Shown here one piece after another: positions 17,622 through 43,986 of a stretch of DNA of 43,986 bases. Positions within the stretch are counted from its first letter, which is position 1. Every line of letters starts with the position of its first letter. Source of the DNA: Candidatus Shapirobacteria bacterium (lineage in GTDB: Bacteria; Patescibacteriota; Microgenomatia; UBA12405). Below the pieces are notes generated by a model. That model was not told where the DNA came from. It did not search any database and saw nothing but the letters and a program-made list of their open reading frames with translations. The stretch is from positions 1 through 43,986 of the forward strand of contig QKGR01000019.1 of the NCBI GenBank assembly GCA_003250375.1. The letters run 5' to 3'. A program made the translations under genes and the position numbers.

Positions 17622-17648
17622 AAAAACCCTCCGAAGGGTTTCGGAGGG
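17622..17648 (-). terminator. intrinsic terminator between rplK and rplA
   Basis: On the minus strand: CCCTCCGAA-accc-TTCGGAGGG followed by TTTTT. Two further hairpins precede it (GGTAC-gcaa-GTACC and TTCCTTTC-tt-GAAAGGAA). Confidence 0.6.
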
Positions 17649-40272: not shown

Positions 40273-41160
40273 TTATTGGATAGTGCGGATGAACTCATGA
40301 AGTTGCTGGGAATATTTGGGATCCTTGAGAGCGAGAGTGATGTTGGCTTTGAGCCAGGTAAGAGGGTCGCCGCAGGCGGACCATTGGGAGCCGGAGGCTT
40401 GATAGTCCAATCCCATGATGACTCCATCTTGGGCAGCAGTATTGAAGGCGTTGGTGAGCCAAAGTTCACCTCTGTCGATGGCAGTATTTTCTAAAATTTC
40501 GATAATTTTGGGACTAACTATAAAACGAGCACCTTGGCCGTAGTTGGAAGGGGCATCTTCGAGTTTTGGTTTTTCGACCATGGAGTCGACTCGAAGAGGA
40601 TAATTTGGATCGTCTTTGAATTTTAGAATACCCATGGAGGGGATTTGCCAATCGGGAATTTGTTGGACACCGATGAGGGCTTGAGGCTGATATTGGTTGT
40701 AAGTTTGAATTAATTTGGTGACAAAAGAACCGGGAGTGTCCTCGATGGTGAGGTCGTCGCCCCAGAGGTAGATAACGGGATCCTGACCAATGAAATTTCG
40801 GGCAACTAAGAGTGGTGTGCCGTTGCCATAGGGAAAATCTTTGGTCTGAGGTAGGAATTCGATGTGCTTAATGCGGTCCATCATACGACGCCAAGAATCG
40901 AGTTTGTCGGATTTGCCGGTGTCGGCAAGATATTGTTCGAGAAGTGGGTTGGGTTGGAAATAGTCTTTGATGGTAGTGTCGTCTTCGCGGTGGACAATGC
41001 AAAAATCGGTAATGCCGGCTCCTAAGAGTTCTTCAATGACCCATTGAAGCTGGGGACGGTCGACGACGGGGATGAGATGCTTGGCATAAGTTTTAACAGC
41101 GGGAAGAAAACGGGTGGCCCAACCGGCCACTGGGACGACAGCTTTAGTGATGGGTGTCAT
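40273..41160 (-). CDS. galU: UTP--glucose-1-phosphate uridylyltransferase
   Basis: KAVVPVAGWATRFLPAVKTYAKHLIPVVDRP matches the GalU N-terminal signature. 295 aa. TGaTATCAT ends 5 nt before the ATG. Confidence 0.85.
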   Translation of the reverse strand: MTPITKAVVPVAGWATRFLPAVKTYAKHLIPVVDRPQLQWVIEELLGAGITDFCIVHREDDTTIKDYFQPNPLLEQYLADTGKSDKLDSWRRMMDRIKHIEFLPQTKDFPYGNGTPLLVARNFIGQDPVIYLWGDDLTIEDTPGSFVTKLIQTYNQYQPQALIGVQQIPDWQIPSMGILKFKDDPNYPLRVDSMVEKPKLEDAPSNYGQGARFIVSPKIIEILENTAIDRGELWLTNAFNTAAQDGVIMGLDYQASGSQWSACGDPLTWLKANITLALKDPKYSQQLHEFIRTIQ

Positions 41161-41172
41161 TACTTATGATAT

Positions 41173-41272
41173 CAGTTATTCAGTTATTCAGTTAATCAGT
41201 TAATCAGTTAATCAGTTAATCAGTTAATCAGTTAATCAGTTAATCAGTTAATCAGTTAATCAGTTAATCAGT
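41173..41272. repeat. 8-bp tandem repeat, about 12.5 units of CAGTTAAT (the first two units are CAGTTATT)
   Basis: Read directly from the sequence. It begins 13 nt upstream of the galU ATG. Confidence 0.95.
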
Positions 41273-41546
41273 GGTGGTGCCTGTATGGAGAAGAAATGAA
41301 TTTAGAATAATAGTGGTAGAATGGGGTATGGGAGATAATGAAAAAGTTAGCCAGAAACCACAAGAAGGAGATGTTGGAGTAACTGGTGTACCAATTAGTT
41401 CTGGAGATGTCGTTCGAAGAGAGATTCCACCAGGAAGAGATGCTAAAAATCCGCAAAATGAATGGCCTAGAAGAATAAGGAAACCATAGTTAACCTAAAT
41501 ATAGAAGTATAGAAATTCATTTGCTACAATAAGCGGTAGACTTTAT

Positions 41547-41618
41547 GGGCCCATAGTCCCGATGTGTATCGGGATAAACTACGTTGGTAGCGCGGTCCGA
41601 TGTCCATCGGACAGGTCA
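41547..41618 (+). pseudogene. 5' portion of a decayed tRNA-Ala-like copy carrying hairpin insertions
   Basis: GGGCCCATAG, then an insert (TCCCGATGTGTATCGGGATAAACTA), then CGTTGGTAGCGCG. The hairpin GTCCGATGTCCATCGGAC stands in place of the anticodon arm, followed by AGGTC. It then breaks off. Confidence 0.45.
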
Positions 41619-41668
41619 TTATCAACCGAGTCCTTTTTAAAATTAAGTAAGTCCTTGATATTAAATCA

Positions 41669-41741
41669 GGGCCCATAGCGTAGTTGGTAGCGCGTCCCCA
41701 TGGCATGGGGAAGGTCAGGGGTTCGAGTCCCCTTGGGTCCA
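41669..41741 (+). tRNA. tRNA-Ala (anticodon GGC)
   Basis: Hand-folded cloverleaf. Acceptor GGGCCCA/TGGGTCC with G3:U70. D stem GCGT/GCGC. Anticodon stem TCCCC/GGGGA with loop ATGGCAT. T arm AGGGG-TTCGAGT-CCCCT. Discriminator A. CCA is not encoded. Confidence 0.85.
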
Positions 41742-41745
41742 CTTC

Positions 41746-42021
41746 GTGAATAAAGGGGTTGTTTACATCTTGAAATCACAAACGAATGGTAGATATTATA
41801 TTGGAAGTACGGATGATCTTGATCGGCGTTTGAAAGAACATAATTCTGGAAATTCAAAATATACTTCAGAATCCGGCCCTTGGGAAATCGTGTTTTGTCA
41901 AACATATAAATCTTTGAAAATGGCAAGAACTATTGAATACTGGTTGAAAAGGCAAAAAAGCAGAGTCCTTATCGAAAGAATAATAGTAGATAAGGAGATT
42001 AAGAAGATTGTTACAAGCTAG
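41746..42021 (+). CDS. GIY-YIG nuclease family protein (small, UPF0213/YhbQ-like)
   Basis: VYILKSQTNGRYYIGSTDDLDRRLKEHN matches the GIY-(10 aa)-YIG motif plus the R..H.N continuation. The GTG start is 4 nt after the tRNA-Ala end. Confidence 0.8.
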   Translation: MNKGVVYILKSQTNGRYYIGSTDDLDRRLKEHNSGNSKYTSESGPWEIVFCQTYKSLKMARTIEYWLKRQKSRVLIERIIVDKEIKKIVTS

Positions 42022-42022
42022 T

Positions 42023-42074
42023 GCGGTCCGATGTCCATCGGACAGGTCAGGGGTTTTTAGTCCCCTTGGGTCCA
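42023..42074 (+). pseudogene. 3' portion of the decayed tRNA-Ala-like copy
   Basis: It repeats GCGGTCCGATGTCCATCGGACAGGTCA (identical to 41592-41618). It then continues AGGGGTTTTTAGTCCCCTTGGGTCCA, which is a degenerate T arm plus the acceptor 3' strand of tRNA-Ala. Confidence 0.45.
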
Positions 42075-42215
42075 CTTCGACTCGCTTTGCTCGCTCAGTG
42101 TAAACACCTGATTCCTGGTATATATGTATTGAAACCTTGTTTTTTGAAGTGCGCTTAGTCGAAACCCTGAGCGTGGTGAGCGGTAGCGAACCAAAGTCGA
42201 AGGGCTGTAAGTTTT

Positions 42216-42485
42216 ATGTGTGATATGGAGATAACTGAATGGTATGTATATATTCTTCGATGCTCCGATTCTTCCTATTATGTTGGTATATCTCCTGATG
42301 TTGCGAAGCGTGTAATGCTTCATAATTTAGGAAGAGGTGCTAGGTATACAAAAGATCATCGACCTGTTGTGCTAGTTTACTCAAGAAAATATTCAAGTAA
42401 GTCTGAAGCGAGGAAAAGAGAGATACAAATTAAAGGTTGGAGTCGCTTAAAAAAAGAGAAATTAATAAAGGGCGAGTTTAAGTAA
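42216..42485 (+). CDS. GIY-YIG nuclease family protein (small, UPF0213/YhbQ-like)
   Basis: WYVYILRCSDSSYYVGISPDVAKRVMLHN, plus the C-terminal EARKREIQIKGWSRLKKEKL typical of this family. Confidence 0.8.
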   Translation: MCDMEITEWYVYILRCSDSSYYVGISPDVAKRVMLHNLGRGARYTKDHRPVVLVYSRKYSSKSEARKREIQIKGWSRLKKEKLIKGEFK

Positions 42486-42486
42486 C

Positions 42487-43272
42487 TTATGGCTGGAAAT
42501 CGTTGGGGCAAGAATCGGGAGAAGTGGGCATTTGGTTGATGCAAGATTTGATGCTTTTGACTTGAGGATATTGCATGGCTGTGAGGAGGGCAGAAAGACC
42601 CATACATTGGAGGCGAGTGGAACCACCGCCGTAACTTTGAACAGAGTCAAAGTAATTTATGAAGAGAGTGCCATTGGAGTCGAGGTTCACCTCATTGACT
42701 CCACCGATTTGATTCTTAAATTTACTTTGAGTTCTTTGTTGATAATCAGCAATTTCCTTTGAGTTTGGATAAGAGGCGTAGGGCTTGGCGGCCATAAGGT
42801 GCATTGTTTCGAAAATAGGACGAGCATTCTTGGGAATATAGTCAATTATTGGTGTTGGCTGGTAGGATCCTGCGATGTCGATACAATTAAACATGTAAAC
42901 AGGTTTTGTGGTGTCGATGCTTTTAGTAGTTGGTAGGGGAGGGAATTTGACATTCTTTACATAGTCGTAAATTTGGTGAGTTTTGAAGTATTGGATTTGG
43001 TCGGCTGTGTAGATTTTGTCCAAAGAGAGGGTGTTTTTGGTGTCGATAGTGGGAGTGGGGGAGGAAGTGGCTTTGCTGGGGTTGGGGCTAAGATTTTTAT
43101 AGGGAGTGGGGGTAATTAGACCAATGGTGAATTGTTTGGAAATTGGGGTGCCTTTGGAGGTGGAAAAGACGAAAAGAGCGGAGATTAAAATAACTGCTAG
43201 AGGAAGAATAAATGCTAGTTTTGATCCCATGACTGATGGTAGCACAAATTTTGAAATTAAGGTAAAATTCAT
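42487..43272 (-). CDS. hypothetical membrane-anchored or secreted protein
   Basis: The start was trimmed to the ATG at 43272. The first 24 codons of the track ORF are antisense to tRNA-Trp. Hydrophobic segment LAFILPLAVILISALFVF. Confidence 0.5.
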   Translation of the reverse strand: MNFTLISKFVLPSVMGSKLAFILPLAVILISALFVFSTSKGTPISKQFTIGLITPTPYKNLSPNPSKATSSPTPTIDTKNTLSLDKIYTADQIQYFKTHQIYDYVKNVKFPPLPTTKSIDTTKPVYMFNCIDIAGSYQPTPIIDYIPKNARPIFETMHLMAAKPYASYPNSKEIADYQQRTQSKFKNQIGGVNEVNLDSNGTLFINYFDSVQSYGGGSTRLQCMGLSALLTAMQYPQVKSIKSCINQMPTSPDSCPNDFQP

Positions 43273-43278
43273 GCACTT

Positions 43279-43349
43279 GCGGGTGTCGTTCAATGGTAGG
43301 ACTGCGGTCTCCAAAACCGCCAATAGAGGTTCGATTCCTTTCACCCGTG
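43279..43349 (+). tRNA. tRNA-Trp (anticodon CCA)
   Basis: Hand-folded. Acceptor GCGGGTG/CACCCGT. D stem GTTC/GGAC. Anticodon stem GCGGT/ACCGC with loop CTCCAAA. T arm AGAGG-TTCGATT-CCTTT. Discriminator G. Confidence 0.85.
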
Positions 43350-43468
43350 CTAAATAAATCGAGGTTCGATTCTCTGCCTGAGGCGGATAAACTTTTCACC
43401 CGTGCTAAATAAATCGAGGTTCGATTCTCCGCCTCGTCGGCGGATAAACTTTTCACCCGTGCTAAATT
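43342..43468 (+). repeat. tandem repeat (55 bp + 57 bp + a 15-bp partial unit) seeded by the tRNA-Trp 3' end
   Basis: The unit CACCCGTGCTAAATAAATCGAGGTTCGATTCTC[hairpin]GGATAAACTTTT is repeated. Each unit re-creates the T-loop and acceptor 3' end, with an inserted hairpin (TCTGCCTGAGGCGGA or TCCGCCTCGTCGGCGGA). Confidence 0.85.
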
Positions 43469-43706
43469 ATCCTTGGGAACATTGGGAATTTCGTCTAACC
43501 CAAATTTCGGTTCTTTTTTGATCGAAAATAATGGCATCTTGCTCGCCGCAACCTGCACAAGCACTCTTTATTAGATCGGGGAGATCTTGTTCTCGATTGG
43601 CCAAGCCCATGGCTTGGAGGATGGCATTGCGAATATTTAGGCAGGCAGGTGTGCCTGGTGAATTGACTTGAATGTATTCTGTTTTGTTGATTTCGCTAAT
43701 GGTCAT
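43467..43706 (-). CDS. hypothetical small protein (79 aa)
   Basis: The start was moved to the ATG at 43706 (MTISEINK). TATAAT ends 6 nt upstream, which suggests a leaderless start. Confidence 0.45.
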   Translation of the reverse strand: MTISEINKTEYIQVNSPGTPACLNIRNAILQAMGLANREQDLPDLIKSACAGCGEQDAIIFDQKRTEIWVRRNSQCSQG

Positions 43707-43849
43707 ACTTAAATTATATAAGTAATATGTGTAGAAAATACGTATTATTACAGCTTTATTATATTTTTTTAACATTTGAGAAATTTAATTTAGAATGATG
43801 GAATCGTTTTGTTATTAAGTAGGTTTGGGAGGAATGATAAGATTTAAGA

Positions 43850-43986
43850 ATGAAGAGAGATTTGGTGATTATTGTGACGGGGATACATAATGAGAATTTT
43901 GTGCCCAAAGCAATCGATTTGATGGCCTGGAGCTTGAGATGGAGAGGAGTGGAGGCGGAAGTGTTTAGGATGCATTGGCAATCGGA
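43850..43986 (+). CDS. 5' fragment of a CDS running off the window (MKRDLVIIVTGIHNENF...)
   Basis: Open frame from the ATG at 43850 to the window end. Not identifiable. Confidence 0.3.
   Translation, partial: MKRDLVIIVTGIHNENFVPKAIDLMAWSLRWRGVEAEVFRMHWQS

Follow-up and report, generated by a model that had tools for sequence, protein, structure and literature searches.

SegB of phage T4 is a free-standing GIY-YIG homing endonuclease encoded in a tRNA cluster, and the conserved core of its 27-bp site is the DNA of the T-psi-C stem-loop (PMC2330249). In phage T6, SegB makes breaks within tRNA genes and drives tandem amplification of tRNA and segB by way of a microhomology that the 5′ end of the tRNA shares with the 3′ end of segB; segB co-localises with tRNAs across phages (PMC13096335). 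Here we describe a locus of GIY-YIG and tRNA genes in a cellular genome, that of a Candidatus Shapirobacteria bacterium. The DNA analysed (the window) is contig QKGR01000019.1, 43,986 nt, read on the forward strand. In it, a 91-aa GIY-YIG open reading frame (ORF 1) stands between an intact tRNA-Ala(GGC) gene and partial tRNA copies in which an 18-bp palindrome takes the place of the anticodon arm. Judged by comparison with related loci, the locus is probably a selfish element resident in tRNA genes, with a minimal single-domain (UPF0213/Slx1-like) GIY-YIG nuclease gene as its core.

Among earlier precedents, Paquin, Laforest and Lang reportedly described in 1994 free-standing GIY-YIG ORFs of fungal mitochondria (Allomyces atp6) that enter the end of a gene together with a replacement copy. 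There the target is said to be partly duplicated, the intact gene to persist with the displaced fragment beside it, and small G+C-rich hairpins to accompany the ORFs. Enzymes of the HUH/Y1 type, which act on single-stranded DNA hairpins, serve REP (repetitive extragenic palindromic) elements with RAYT transposases as well as IS200/IS605. A 2006 survey of the GIY-YIG superfamily makes no mention of an association with tRNA genes (PMC1564403). In 2024, GIY-YIG ORFs were reported in non-intron insertions of rRNA genes in the candidate phyla radiation (CPR), and the authors doubted that these spread by homing (PMC11270868).

An intact tRNA-Ala and a nuclease gene lie between two tRNA-Ala-like pieces

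The locus consists, in this order, of a 5′ tRNA-Ala-like piece, the intact tRNA-Ala(GGC), ORF 1 and a 3′ tRNA-Ala-like piece:

41522–41530, + strand: extended −10-like motif TGCTACAAT, 16 nt upstream of the 5′ piece; presumed native tRNA-Ala promoter
41547–41618, + strand: 5′ tRNA-Ala-like piece, about tRNA positions 1–49; repeat families D3 and D5
41557–41579, + strand: D-arm insert of the 5′ piece, hairpin TCCCGATGTGTATCGGGA (41557–41574) plus TAAAC
41595–41612, + strand: left copy of the palindrome, GTCCGATGTCCATCGGAC, 18 nt in place of the 17-nt anticodon arm; inverted repeat I2
41619–41668, + strand: A+T-rich spacer of 50 nt between the 5′ piece and the intact tRNA
41669–41742, + strand: intact tRNA-Ala(GGC) (ARAGORN; Rfam RF00005, 64.7 bits, E = 4e-13)
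41746–42021, + strand: GIY-YIG ORF 1, 91 aa, GTG start (PF01541, E = 5.9e-16)
42019–42074, + strand: 3′ tRNA-Ala-like piece, about tRNA positions 20–76; repeat families D5, D7 and D10
42026–42043, + strand: right copy of the palindrome, identical to the left copy

The 5′ piece is composed of GGGCCCATAG, the acceptor 5′ strand, followed by hairpin TCCCGATGTGTATCGGGA, TAAAC, TACGTTGGTAGCGCG, hairpin GTCCGATGTCCATCGGAC and AGGTCA; the rest of the D arm (..GTTGGTAGCGCG) comes after the D-arm insert, and the AGGTCA end falls just before the T stem. The TCCCGATGTGTATCGGGA hairpin folds with an 8-bp stem and a 4-nt loop, and both window hairpins have 7–8-bp stems and 4-nt loops. The 3′ piece is composed of TAGTGCG, the same hairpin, AGGTC, a T arm with an altered loop (TTTTTAGT versus TTCGAGT in the intact gene) and TGGGTCCA, which correspond to the D-stem 3′ strand, the palindrome for the anticodon arm, the variable loop, the T arm and the acceptor 3′ strand. 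CTTCG follows directly, as it does after the intact tRNA-Ala. ORF 1 starts 3–4 nt past the intact tRNA, and its TAG stop (42019–42021) is the D-loop TAG, the first triplet of the 3′ piece.

The pieces are separated by 404 nt (41619–42022). They share an exact 27-nt direct repeat (41592–41618 and 42023–42049), which grows to 31 nt with one mismatch (41588–41618 and 42019–42049; family D5). These parts had been noticed in a sequence-only reading of the window, and they hold: the 5′ part at 41547–41618, the matching 3′ part with CTTCG (now delimited to 42019–42074), the 404-bp segment with its perfect tRNA-Ala(GGC) and 91-aa GIY-YIG ORF (on which ARAGORN, Rfam and Pfam agree), the 27-bp repeat at the junctions, the hairpins within or replacing the D and anticodon arms (41557–41574, 41595–41612 and 42026–42043), and a second GIY-YIG gene at 42216.

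Neither outer piece is called as a tRNA by ARAGORN or Rfam. With the pieces joined in silico and the D-arm hairpin removed, relaxed ARAGORN reads a tRNA-like gene with an 8-nt anticodon loop; together with the replaced anticodon arm and the TTTTTAGT T loop, this falls short of a functional tRNA. A functional tRNA of the frameshift type, with an 8-nt anticodon loop, was considered and rejected: the palindrome is free to vary at its centre, which may also occur flipped, and the T loop is decayed.

A conserved palindrome replaces the anticodon arm

The palindrome has the 18-nt consensus GTCCGATG-NN-CATCGGAC (family consensus GTCCGATGnnCATCGGAC). CCG/CGG is invariant, TG..CA is present in the majority of copies (~75–85%), the two central bases are free, and the two outer pairs covary (GC, UA, CG, AU). 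Exact replacement of the anticodon arm by a hairpin is seen in 31 loci, where the sequence on either side agrees with the local tRNA (D-stem 3′ strand on the left, variable loop plus T stem on the right, each at least 5/6), and 18 nt is the length of 26 of the 36 hairpins that replace an anticodon arm. Hairpins occur at 7.5 per kb near the ORF and at 0.33 per kb more than 600 nt away. Among the strict copies of the palindrome in 1.17 Mb, 48 of 49 lie within 450 nt of a tRNA; shuffled sequence contains none. The window 18-mer is identical to one adjoining tRNA-Ile in a Parcubacteria genome (L028; L-numbers denote the sequences compared) and differs from the commonest form (L003, L004, L007, L013) in being its reverse complement at the centre only. 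A compensated variant, GTCCGGTG..CACCGGAC, is found in L005, L010 and L161.

The anticodon-arm hairpin is thus a conserved palindrome that travels with the nuclease family across tRNA identities and phyla, and not a product of decay; as far as the hairpins are concerned, the description of the split tRNA-Ala as a decayed copy in the sequence-only reading needs revising. The 27–31-nt repeat is centred on the palindrome and is not an ordinary target-site duplication. Symmetric conservation of TG..CA, which would be unpaired in an RNA tetraloop, suggests recognition of duplex DNA.

Related hairpins (TCCCGATG..CATCGGGA and CCCCGACG..) lie in the D loops or replace the T arms of spare tRNA copies. 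The window D-arm hairpin is one of this class, which also replaces the T arms in L020 and L036, and the module of hairpin plus ATAAAC appears again at the tRNA-Trp pieces of the window and in L115. A G+C-rich hairpin ending in GGA and followed by TAAAC or TAAAT was observed at window positions 41557–41579, 43373–43393 and 43429–43450, in L115, and in L094, L106 and L152 (GGCGGATAAATCC). It was found only within spare tRNA pieces or between tRNAs, and by its sequence and placement looks like a miniature mobile hairpin.

Two observations concern possible sources and misreadings of the palindrome. The anticodon stem of the intact tRNA-Val(CAC) in L011 and L039 is GTCCG/CGGAC, the same as the palindrome stem, and the palindrome may derive from a tRNA-Val anticodon arm. 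In L008 (3835–3911), a complete palindrome-type copy is called ‘tRNA-???’ by ARAGORN with a 4-base anticodon (gaac); copies of this type can be mis-annotated as tRNAs with 8-nt anticodon loops. A hairpin at 17629–17646 of the window passed a loose filter and was discarded as an ordinary intergenic stem-loop that has no TG..CA core.

The arrangement recurs at tRNA genes in several phyla

A scan with one genome per species yielded 433 relatives; the best 80 loci were kept, 79 of them with a complete ORF. A same-strand tRNA lies within 100 nt of 71 of the 79 ORFs (upstream only in 18, downstream only in 51, on both sides in 2), compared with an expected share of ~1%, an estimate based on roughly one tRNA per 20 kb. 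The adjoining tRNAs include those for Ala, Val, Asp, Thr, Ile, Gly, Arg, Pro, Glu, Asn, Met, His and Leu, and the unit is present in Patescibacteria and also in Elusimicrobia, Omnitrophota, Acidobacteriota and KSB1. A palindrome-type hairpin is found near the ORF in 67 of the 79 loci. Most of the loci also have partial tRNA copies, which stand across the ORF from the tRNA and are mostly 100% identical to it. The association of GIY-YIG genes with tRNA fragments and junction repeats that the sequence-only reading proposed to look for elsewhere is therefore borne out by this subfamily.

ORF boundaries coincide with tRNA boundaries. Where the tRNA lies upstream, the start codon follows 1–7 nt past its 3′ end; 56 of the 79 ORFs end in TAG, and 30 of the 79 have their stop within the 5′-terminal 25 nt of a tRNA called by ARAGORN, either at U8-A9-G10 or at the D-loop TAG. 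Two mirror-image forms can be distinguished. In type A, the form of the window, an intact tRNA is followed after 1–7 nt by the start codon, and the ORF ends in the D-loop TAG of a downstream tRNA-like copy that extends to the acceptor 3′ end. The 3′ part of this form (stop in the D-loop TAG, palindrome, T arm and acceptor) was found in L004, L005, L013, L019, L024, L028, L053, L076 and L161. Type B begins with a tRNA-like 5′ copy that is cut off in the T stem or T loop, followed by the ORF and then the intact tRNA; the stop is the U8-A9-G10 TAG of the intact tRNA, or its D-loop TAG if the first TAG is out of frame. Many loci, like the window, carry pieces on both sides of the pair of tRNA and ORF, as in L003, L004, L013, L014, L024, L029, L030, L035, L069 and L082.

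Breakpoints are concentrated at the two best-conserved blocks of the tRNA: the ends of the 5′ pieces fall within −6 to +7 of T54, and 3′ pieces begin at positions 9–21. In the 5′ piece of L013 and in the 3′ piece of L024, the acceptor strand mismatches the adjacent intact tRNA; copies can thus differ in ancestry, which weighs against simple in-place duplication. The layout is also found in a complete chromosome (L080, OZ246412.1). Several paralogous nuclease ORFs within 1 kb occur in tiny genomes (the window, L033), and tandem arrays are present in L033, L059 and L003.

Some of the arrays are periodic. Upstream of tRNA-Thr(GGT), L003 and L004 contain palindrome-bearing pieces with a 59-nt period, and L059 (3230–3524) contains four copies of tRNA-Val positions 1–28 with an 89-nt period. 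The arrays in L003, L004 and L059 resemble the SegB-driven segmental amplification of phage T6.

Occupied and empty alleles of the same tRNA-Ala locus

The 56-nt core of the window tRNA-Ala(GGC) is identical in 95 metagenome stretches, 74 of which have enough flanking sequence to be evaluated. In 23 of the 74, tRNA-Trp(CCA) starts within 90 nt and there is no nuclease gene; 20 of these 23 are also free of any relic. A GIY-YIG ORF adjoins tRNA-Ala (tRNA-Trp in L103) in 8 of the 74, and in the remaining evaluable loci the tRNAs are separated or followed by ordinary genes, or by no gene at all. The occupying ORFs are 36–55% identical to window ORF 1 and include both orientation types, which indicates that the same tRNA gene was entered repeatedly by diverged lineages. 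Several of the tRNA-Ala loci keep the NTP-transferase gene found upstream in the window, at 65–75% nucleotide identity, and so are orthologous to the window locus.

Near-identical flanks allow direct comparison of alleles. The left flank of occupied L085 and L148 is 94–97% identical over 423 nt to that of empty L092, L172 and L114. The identity takes in the promoter and tRNA nucleotides 1–7, and from there on the empty alleles continue the tRNA; the occupied allele consists of the promoter, a 15-nt tRNA 5′ relic with a 40-nt hairpin insert, the ORF and an intact tRNA. Presence and absence at the same site among relatives, the polymorphism that the sequence-only reading had named as a check, is therefore found. 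Its picture of an empty site as an uninterrupted paralog has to be revised, as the empty loci hold a normal single tRNA-Ala.

Derivatives of occupied loci are also present. L127 has a relic of the L086 type and no ORF, and looks like a derivative of that type by ORF loss; in L094 and L095, a spacer joins a palindrome-type 5′ piece to an intact tRNA, and there is no ORF; L115 and L013 contain decayed or truncated ORF copies. Taken together, such loci look like stages in a cycle of gain, decay and loss of selfish nuclease genes.

In L103 (contig Ga0194063_10000004), the stretch from tRNA-Ala to tRNA-Trp carries a type-B unit in tRNA-Trp. Its 5′ Trp-like copy has hairpins in place of the D and T arms and is followed by the ORF, the TAG stop of which extends onto base 1 of the intact tRNA-Trp. 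Duplication also includes the Ala–Trp spacer of 11 nt.

ORF 1 belongs to a family of minimal GIY-YIG proteins

ORF 1 matches PF01541 with 59 bits and the second GIY-YIG protein of the window, ORF 2, with 67.7 bits (cut-off 22.6); the two proteins are 34% identical. In an alignment of 40 homologues, the catalytic residues Y7, Y18, G20, R28, H32 and E64 are invariant, and members of the ORF 1 family are likely active nucleases. The family counts 149 database homologues, mainly from Patescibacteria (CPR) and mainly 85–91 aa long (range 81–113 aa); an exact-sequence look-up of the 91-aa protein returned no record. Sequence comparison places the 91-aa single domain among the UPF0213 or bacterial Slx1-like minimal GIY-YIG proteins. 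The best matches with solved structures are 1ZG2 (E = 5.5e-15) and 1YWL (E = 2.8e-11), followed by SLX1, in agreement with the UPF0213-type assignment made in the sequence-only reading.

Aligned with its homologues, ORF 1 extends only ~20 aa beyond the catalytic domain at its C terminus and has no DNA-binding extension of the I-TevI or Seg kind. A match to TIGR01453 covers residues 3–36 with 27.7 bits, below the cut-off of 56. In this one feature, ORF 1 departs from the Seg/I-TevI proteins. Searches of 2.9 million viral contigs gave N-terminal motif matches of 27–43 residues only and no full-length member, and a phage origin of the nuclease family is not supported. In the phylogeny, nuclease clades follow tRNA identity with occasional switches, and both orientation types are intermixed within clades.

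Promoter position and a second nuclease gene suggest a history of the locus

A motif of the form TGNTANAAT precedes tRNA-Ala(GGC) in 77 of 89 related loci at a distance of 9–23 nt (9–17 nt in 76 of the 77) and is presumed to be the native tRNA promoter. The corresponding window motif, TGCTACAAT, precedes the 5′ piece, and none is found before the intact tRNA. The 5′ piece therefore stands where the 5′ end of the resident gene was, which suggests that the resident tRNA gene was disrupted and functionally replaced. A generic scan for sigma-70 promoters and terminators did not report the motif at 41522–41530, found no terminators and gave nothing informative. Spacers equivalent to that between the 5′ piece and the intact tRNA of the window measure 0–8 nt in L003, L004, L013 and L024, and contain the promoter motif in L094 and L095.

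Downstream of the 3′ piece, the window continues with:

42075–42215, + strand: structured leader of the second GIY-YIG subfamily, 141 nt, TTCGACTC...CGCTCAGTGTAAACAC...GAGTCGAAACCCTGAGCG...GTCGAAGGGC
42216–42485, + strand: GIY-YIG ORF 2, 89 aa, of a different subfamily (PF01541, E = 1.1e-18)
43279–43462, + strand: tRNA-Trp(CCA) (43279–43350) with tandem 3′ pieces (43351–43405 and 43406–43462)

ORF 2 has 263 homologues; a same-strand tRNA ends 80–190 nt upstream in four of the five that were looked up, and three matches of this second subfamily occur among the loci gathered for ORF 1. A leader of the ORF 2 type begins directly past the 3′ end of an intact tRNA (Val, Arg, Gly, Leu) in L190–L206, with a length of ~80–145 nt (L190, 1366–1500; L191, 1422–1560; L194, 1358–1500; L195, 1411–1530; L201, 1357–1500). 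It opens with TTCGACTC, contains CGCTCAGTGTAAACAC and has GAGTCGAAACCCTGAGCG...GTCGAAGGGC near the ORF; its complementary blocks are TTCGACTC/GAGTCGAA and CGCTCAG/CTGAGCG, and its fold has a z-score of ~−2. No Rfam family matches the leader, which could constitute a separate structured element, either RNA or DNA. Because the leader starts after tRNA 3′ ends in relatives, the 3′ piece of the window looks like a resident 3′ end to which an older ORF 2 unit was attached.

The resident tRNA-Ala(GGC) gene would accordingly have been broken in the window, with its promoter-proximal 5′ part left as 41547–41618 and its 3′ part left as 42019–42074, followed by the leader of the older nuclease gene; a full tRNA-Ala copy and a nuclease ORF between the parts would let the cell keep a working tRNA. 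The sequence-only reading had treated the pieces as two halves of one gene. They do flank the insert, but they overlap by 31 nt (~1–49 and ~20–76) and so need not be halves. Given this overlap, the normal tRNA in empty alleles and the 5′ pieces found elsewhere with no ORF, a two-step history is equally possible.

Proposed mechanism and alternative explanations

We propose that the DNA of tRNA genes is cut by the nuclease at its conserved D-loop or T-loop blocks, the latter being where phage SegB cuts. Repair would draw on an element-bearing copy, through the conserved D/T blocks or through longer tRNA homology, and would install the ORF together with a duplicated tRNA stretch, one tRNA copy staying intact. 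The 27–31-nt palindrome-centred repeat would be the joint of the repair event, which the palindrome would mark and perhaps direct. The whole unit might be transcribed from the tRNA promoter. In type A, tRNA 3′ processing would then give the ORF an almost leaderless 5′ end, and in type B, the RNase P cut would remove the stop codon, coupling nuclease output to tRNA processing. The mobile tRNA-plus-nuclease cassette of the sequence-only reading, inserted into a tRNA gene and replacing it, agrees with this scheme as regards mobility, tRNA targeting and the promoter position; its view of the hairpins as decay and of the nature of the repeat needs revising.

A bolder version, which we regard as doubtful, is that these loci represent a new kind of mobile element: a dimeric, domain-minimal GIY-YIG enzyme guided by its own 18-bp palindrome, with nicking, fill-in and tRNA punctuation. 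The nuclease would bind the palindrome that stands for the anticodon arm and nick D-loop and T-loop DNA on either side; filling in of the long staggered break would produce the ~30-nt palindrome-centred direct repeat, and a ‘tRNA replacement cassette’ of ORF and fresh tRNA would be installed or amplified. The start codon would be bared by tRNA 3′ processing and the stop borrowed from the tRNA removed by RNase P, tying dosage to tRNA maturation. If true, this would be the first biological role for the UPF0213 family.

Several points weigh against a selfish tRNA-resident element. Cleavage, homing and transcription are, for every member, predicted from sequence. The protein is a catalytic domain that lacks a DNA-binding extension like that of SegB or I-TevI. 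As an occupied locus keeps an intact tRNA, a nuclease directed against tRNA genes would be expected to cut that locus too. Occurrence of the palindrome is confined to occupied loci, and the cleanest allele pair (L085 versus L092) involves a sister GIY-YIG subfamily that has no anticodon-arm palindrome. Vertical inheritance could lie behind part of the correlation between clade and tRNA, and the left junction of the window (41218–41711) lacks an independent assembly.

Two explanations dispense with mobility. The pieces could be a host-beneficial module, in which they act as functional RNA (processing or stability signals, or decoys for tRNA-directed enzymes) and the GIY-YIG protein is a cellular factor expressed with tRNAs. 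The arm-for-arm replacement by stable 7–8-bp stems with 4-nt loops that keep the cloverleaf spacing would fit, as would hairpins placed right after the stop or 30–50 nt before the start, where stabilising stem-loops are expected; the nearest solved relatives (UPF0213, SLX1) are moreover cellular proteins, and 2.9 million viral contigs lack a full-length member. We nevertheless consider it improbable, as the unit is absent at tRNA-Ala in most related genomes, copies decay and get lost (L115, L127, L013), tiny genomes carry several paralogous nuclease ORFs within 1 kb (the window, L033), the pieces are mostly truncated and unable to fold as tRNAs, and the conserved but unpaired TG..CA points to recognition at the DNA level. 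Quite improbable in our judgement is a purely local history, in which unequal crossing-over duplicates tRNA-Ala, the spares decay, the GIY-YIG gene is passive and nothing is mobile. Arrays of tRNA pieces indeed need no element (the 59-nt period of L003/L004, the four 89-nt copies of L059, the two pieces at the window tRNA-Trp), and the pieces on the flanks frequently match the local tRNA at 100% identity. Recombination between tandem tRNA-Ala copies, which the sequence-only reading offered as its alternative, finds support in the tandem arrays of L033, L059 and L003 but does not explain the whole pattern: one ordered layout shared by tRNAs of over 15 different identities from several phyla, one conserved palindrome instead of random decay in the replaced anticodon arm, near-identical flanks of occupied and empty alleles, diverged nuclease lineages at one and the same tRNA-Ala gene, and pieces whose acceptor strands are foreign to the adjoining tRNA.

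The remaining explanations have very little probability. Partial tRNA duplications are the classic signature of tRNA-integrated islands (PMC9897764), and the repeat, like the core sites of recombinases, has an inverted repeat at its centre; the pieces could then be attL/attR scars of an integrase island. The 404-bp insert, however, holds a tRNA and a 91-aa nuclease only, with no integrase or other recombinase nearby, and integrase att sites were rejected on these grounds. GIY-YIG enzymes, moreover, are hydrolytic nucleases and not conservative recombinases. Equally hard to credit is a self-splicing intron with a homing endonuclease as the 404-bp insert. An Rfam search of 41000–43986 at E <= 10 gave two tRNAs and chance matches, with no group I/II intron or other known RNA; a group I intron in the tRNA was likewise rejected, with no ribozyme match and an outer copy that has its anticodon arm replaced, with no usable anticodon loop, its T loop altered and its D arm interrupted by an insert. 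As to an assembly artefact of repeated tRNA sequence in a metagenome bin, which we also hold to be highly improbable, Logan contigs of the same sample end at 41217 and 41712, that is, at repeats, and leave the left junction with no second assembly. The right junction, from the tRNA 3′ part to the second ORF, is confirmed by an independent Logan contig of the same sample (L002) with 100% identity over 41712–43368, and the layout recurs in more than 70 independent assemblies, including the complete chromosome L080.

Relation to described systems

The element works most like the free-standing homing endonucleases of the SegB type, judged by analogy. In both, a GIY-YIG gene lies amid tRNA genes, with no intron model matching at the window locus. 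The SegB site core is the T-psi-C stem-loop and the 5′ pieces of the window family break at the T loop; in addition, the 3′ end of the window-family ORF overlaps a tRNA 5′ end, with tandem units in L033 and L059. SegB is a phage protein with a C-terminal DNA-binding region, whereas the window family is catalytic-domain-only and found in cellular genomes, and neither a palindrome for the anticodon arm nor a stop codon inside a tRNA is described for SegB loci. Similarity of Seg and intron-type enzymes to the window family is restricted to the N-terminal motif. The UPF0213/COG2827/bacterial Slx1-like proteins (1ZG2, 1YWL; PMC1564403) have the same single-domain architecture and are the closest matches of solved structure; the window subfamily adds the tight context of tRNA genes, tRNA pieces and palindrome.

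Other systems share part of the arrangement. The Allomyces-type ORFs, which also resemble the element, differ in that their targets are protein-coding genes of organelles and not bacterial tRNA genes, and here a tRNA TAG is borrowed as the ORF stop and a specific palindrome stands for the anticodon arm. REP/RAYT systems likewise have short palindromic hairpins clustered around a small nuclease-type gene to which they seem to belong, but no HUH/Y1 enzyme is involved here, and the window-family hairpins are confined to tRNA-like DNA. In integrative elements too, a partial tRNA duplication flanks the insert and the tRNA stays functional; those elements measure 9–23 kb or more and carry integrases (PMC9897764), whereas window-type inserts are ~0.3–0.4 kb with no recombinase, and the window repeat is centred on a palindrome foreign to the tRNA. 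The rRNA insertions of CPR bacteria come from the same radiation and also place small GIY-YIG ORFs in stable-RNA genes with no recognisable intron ribozyme, but they concern rRNA genes only, with no mention of tRNA (PMC11270868).

A full-text search of the accessible literature retrieved no account of GIY-YIG ORFs placed within bacterial tRNA genes; such absence is no proof of novelty, and the element is seemingly undescribed so far. We found described nowhere the arm-for-arm replacement by a palindrome, ORF boundary codons in common with a tRNA, the two mirror-image forms, or a cellular host range over several phyla with no full-length viral member.

UPF0213/COG2827 is a large family of minimal GIY-YIG proteins with solved structures, and the strict genomic context (tRNA genes, tRNA pieces, a family-specific palindrome and boundary codons common to ORF and tRNA) makes cleavage of tRNA genes or of the palindrome a testable hypothesis. 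It also carries the newly recognised relationship of SegB and tRNA from phages to cellular genomes. In ultra-small uncultivated bacteria, tRNA genes appear to have been invaded and duplicated, and to have decayed, again and again. Annotation of tRNAs is affected, since pseudo-tRNAs with 8-nt loops get called, and so is the assembly of metagenome-assembled genomes, since contigs break at tRNA–nuclease units. The pair of palindrome and nuclease could be a source of compact sequence- or structure-specific nucleases.

Additional features of the window

The tandem 3′ copies of tRNA-Trp in the window, 55 and 57 nt long (repeat families D2 and D4), have the T-stem 3′ strand replaced by a TCTGCCTGAGGCGGA or TCCGCCTCGTCGGCGGA hairpin plus TAAAC and are probably left over from the process proposed for the tRNA-Ala locus. 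Comparable tandem 3′ pieces stand behind tRNA-Trp in L005 and L012, and the feature is thus retained among diverged relatives. The hairpin motif CCGATGNNATCGG occurs at only three sites in the 44-kb window, all within the tRNA-Ala-like pieces, against 0.12 expected by chance, and a chance origin is thereby excluded.

Logan look-ups of neighbouring proteins returned short contigs of the same sample only. Between the NTP-transferase gene and the tRNA locus, 41171–41274 consists of ~13 tandem octamers TTAATCAG (TTATTCAG at the start), and an independent Logan contig ends within this array. GC skew is strongly positive throughout the window (1–43986), at +0.1 to +0.56 per kb whatever the gene strand, which is unusually high for an arm of a bacterial chromosome.

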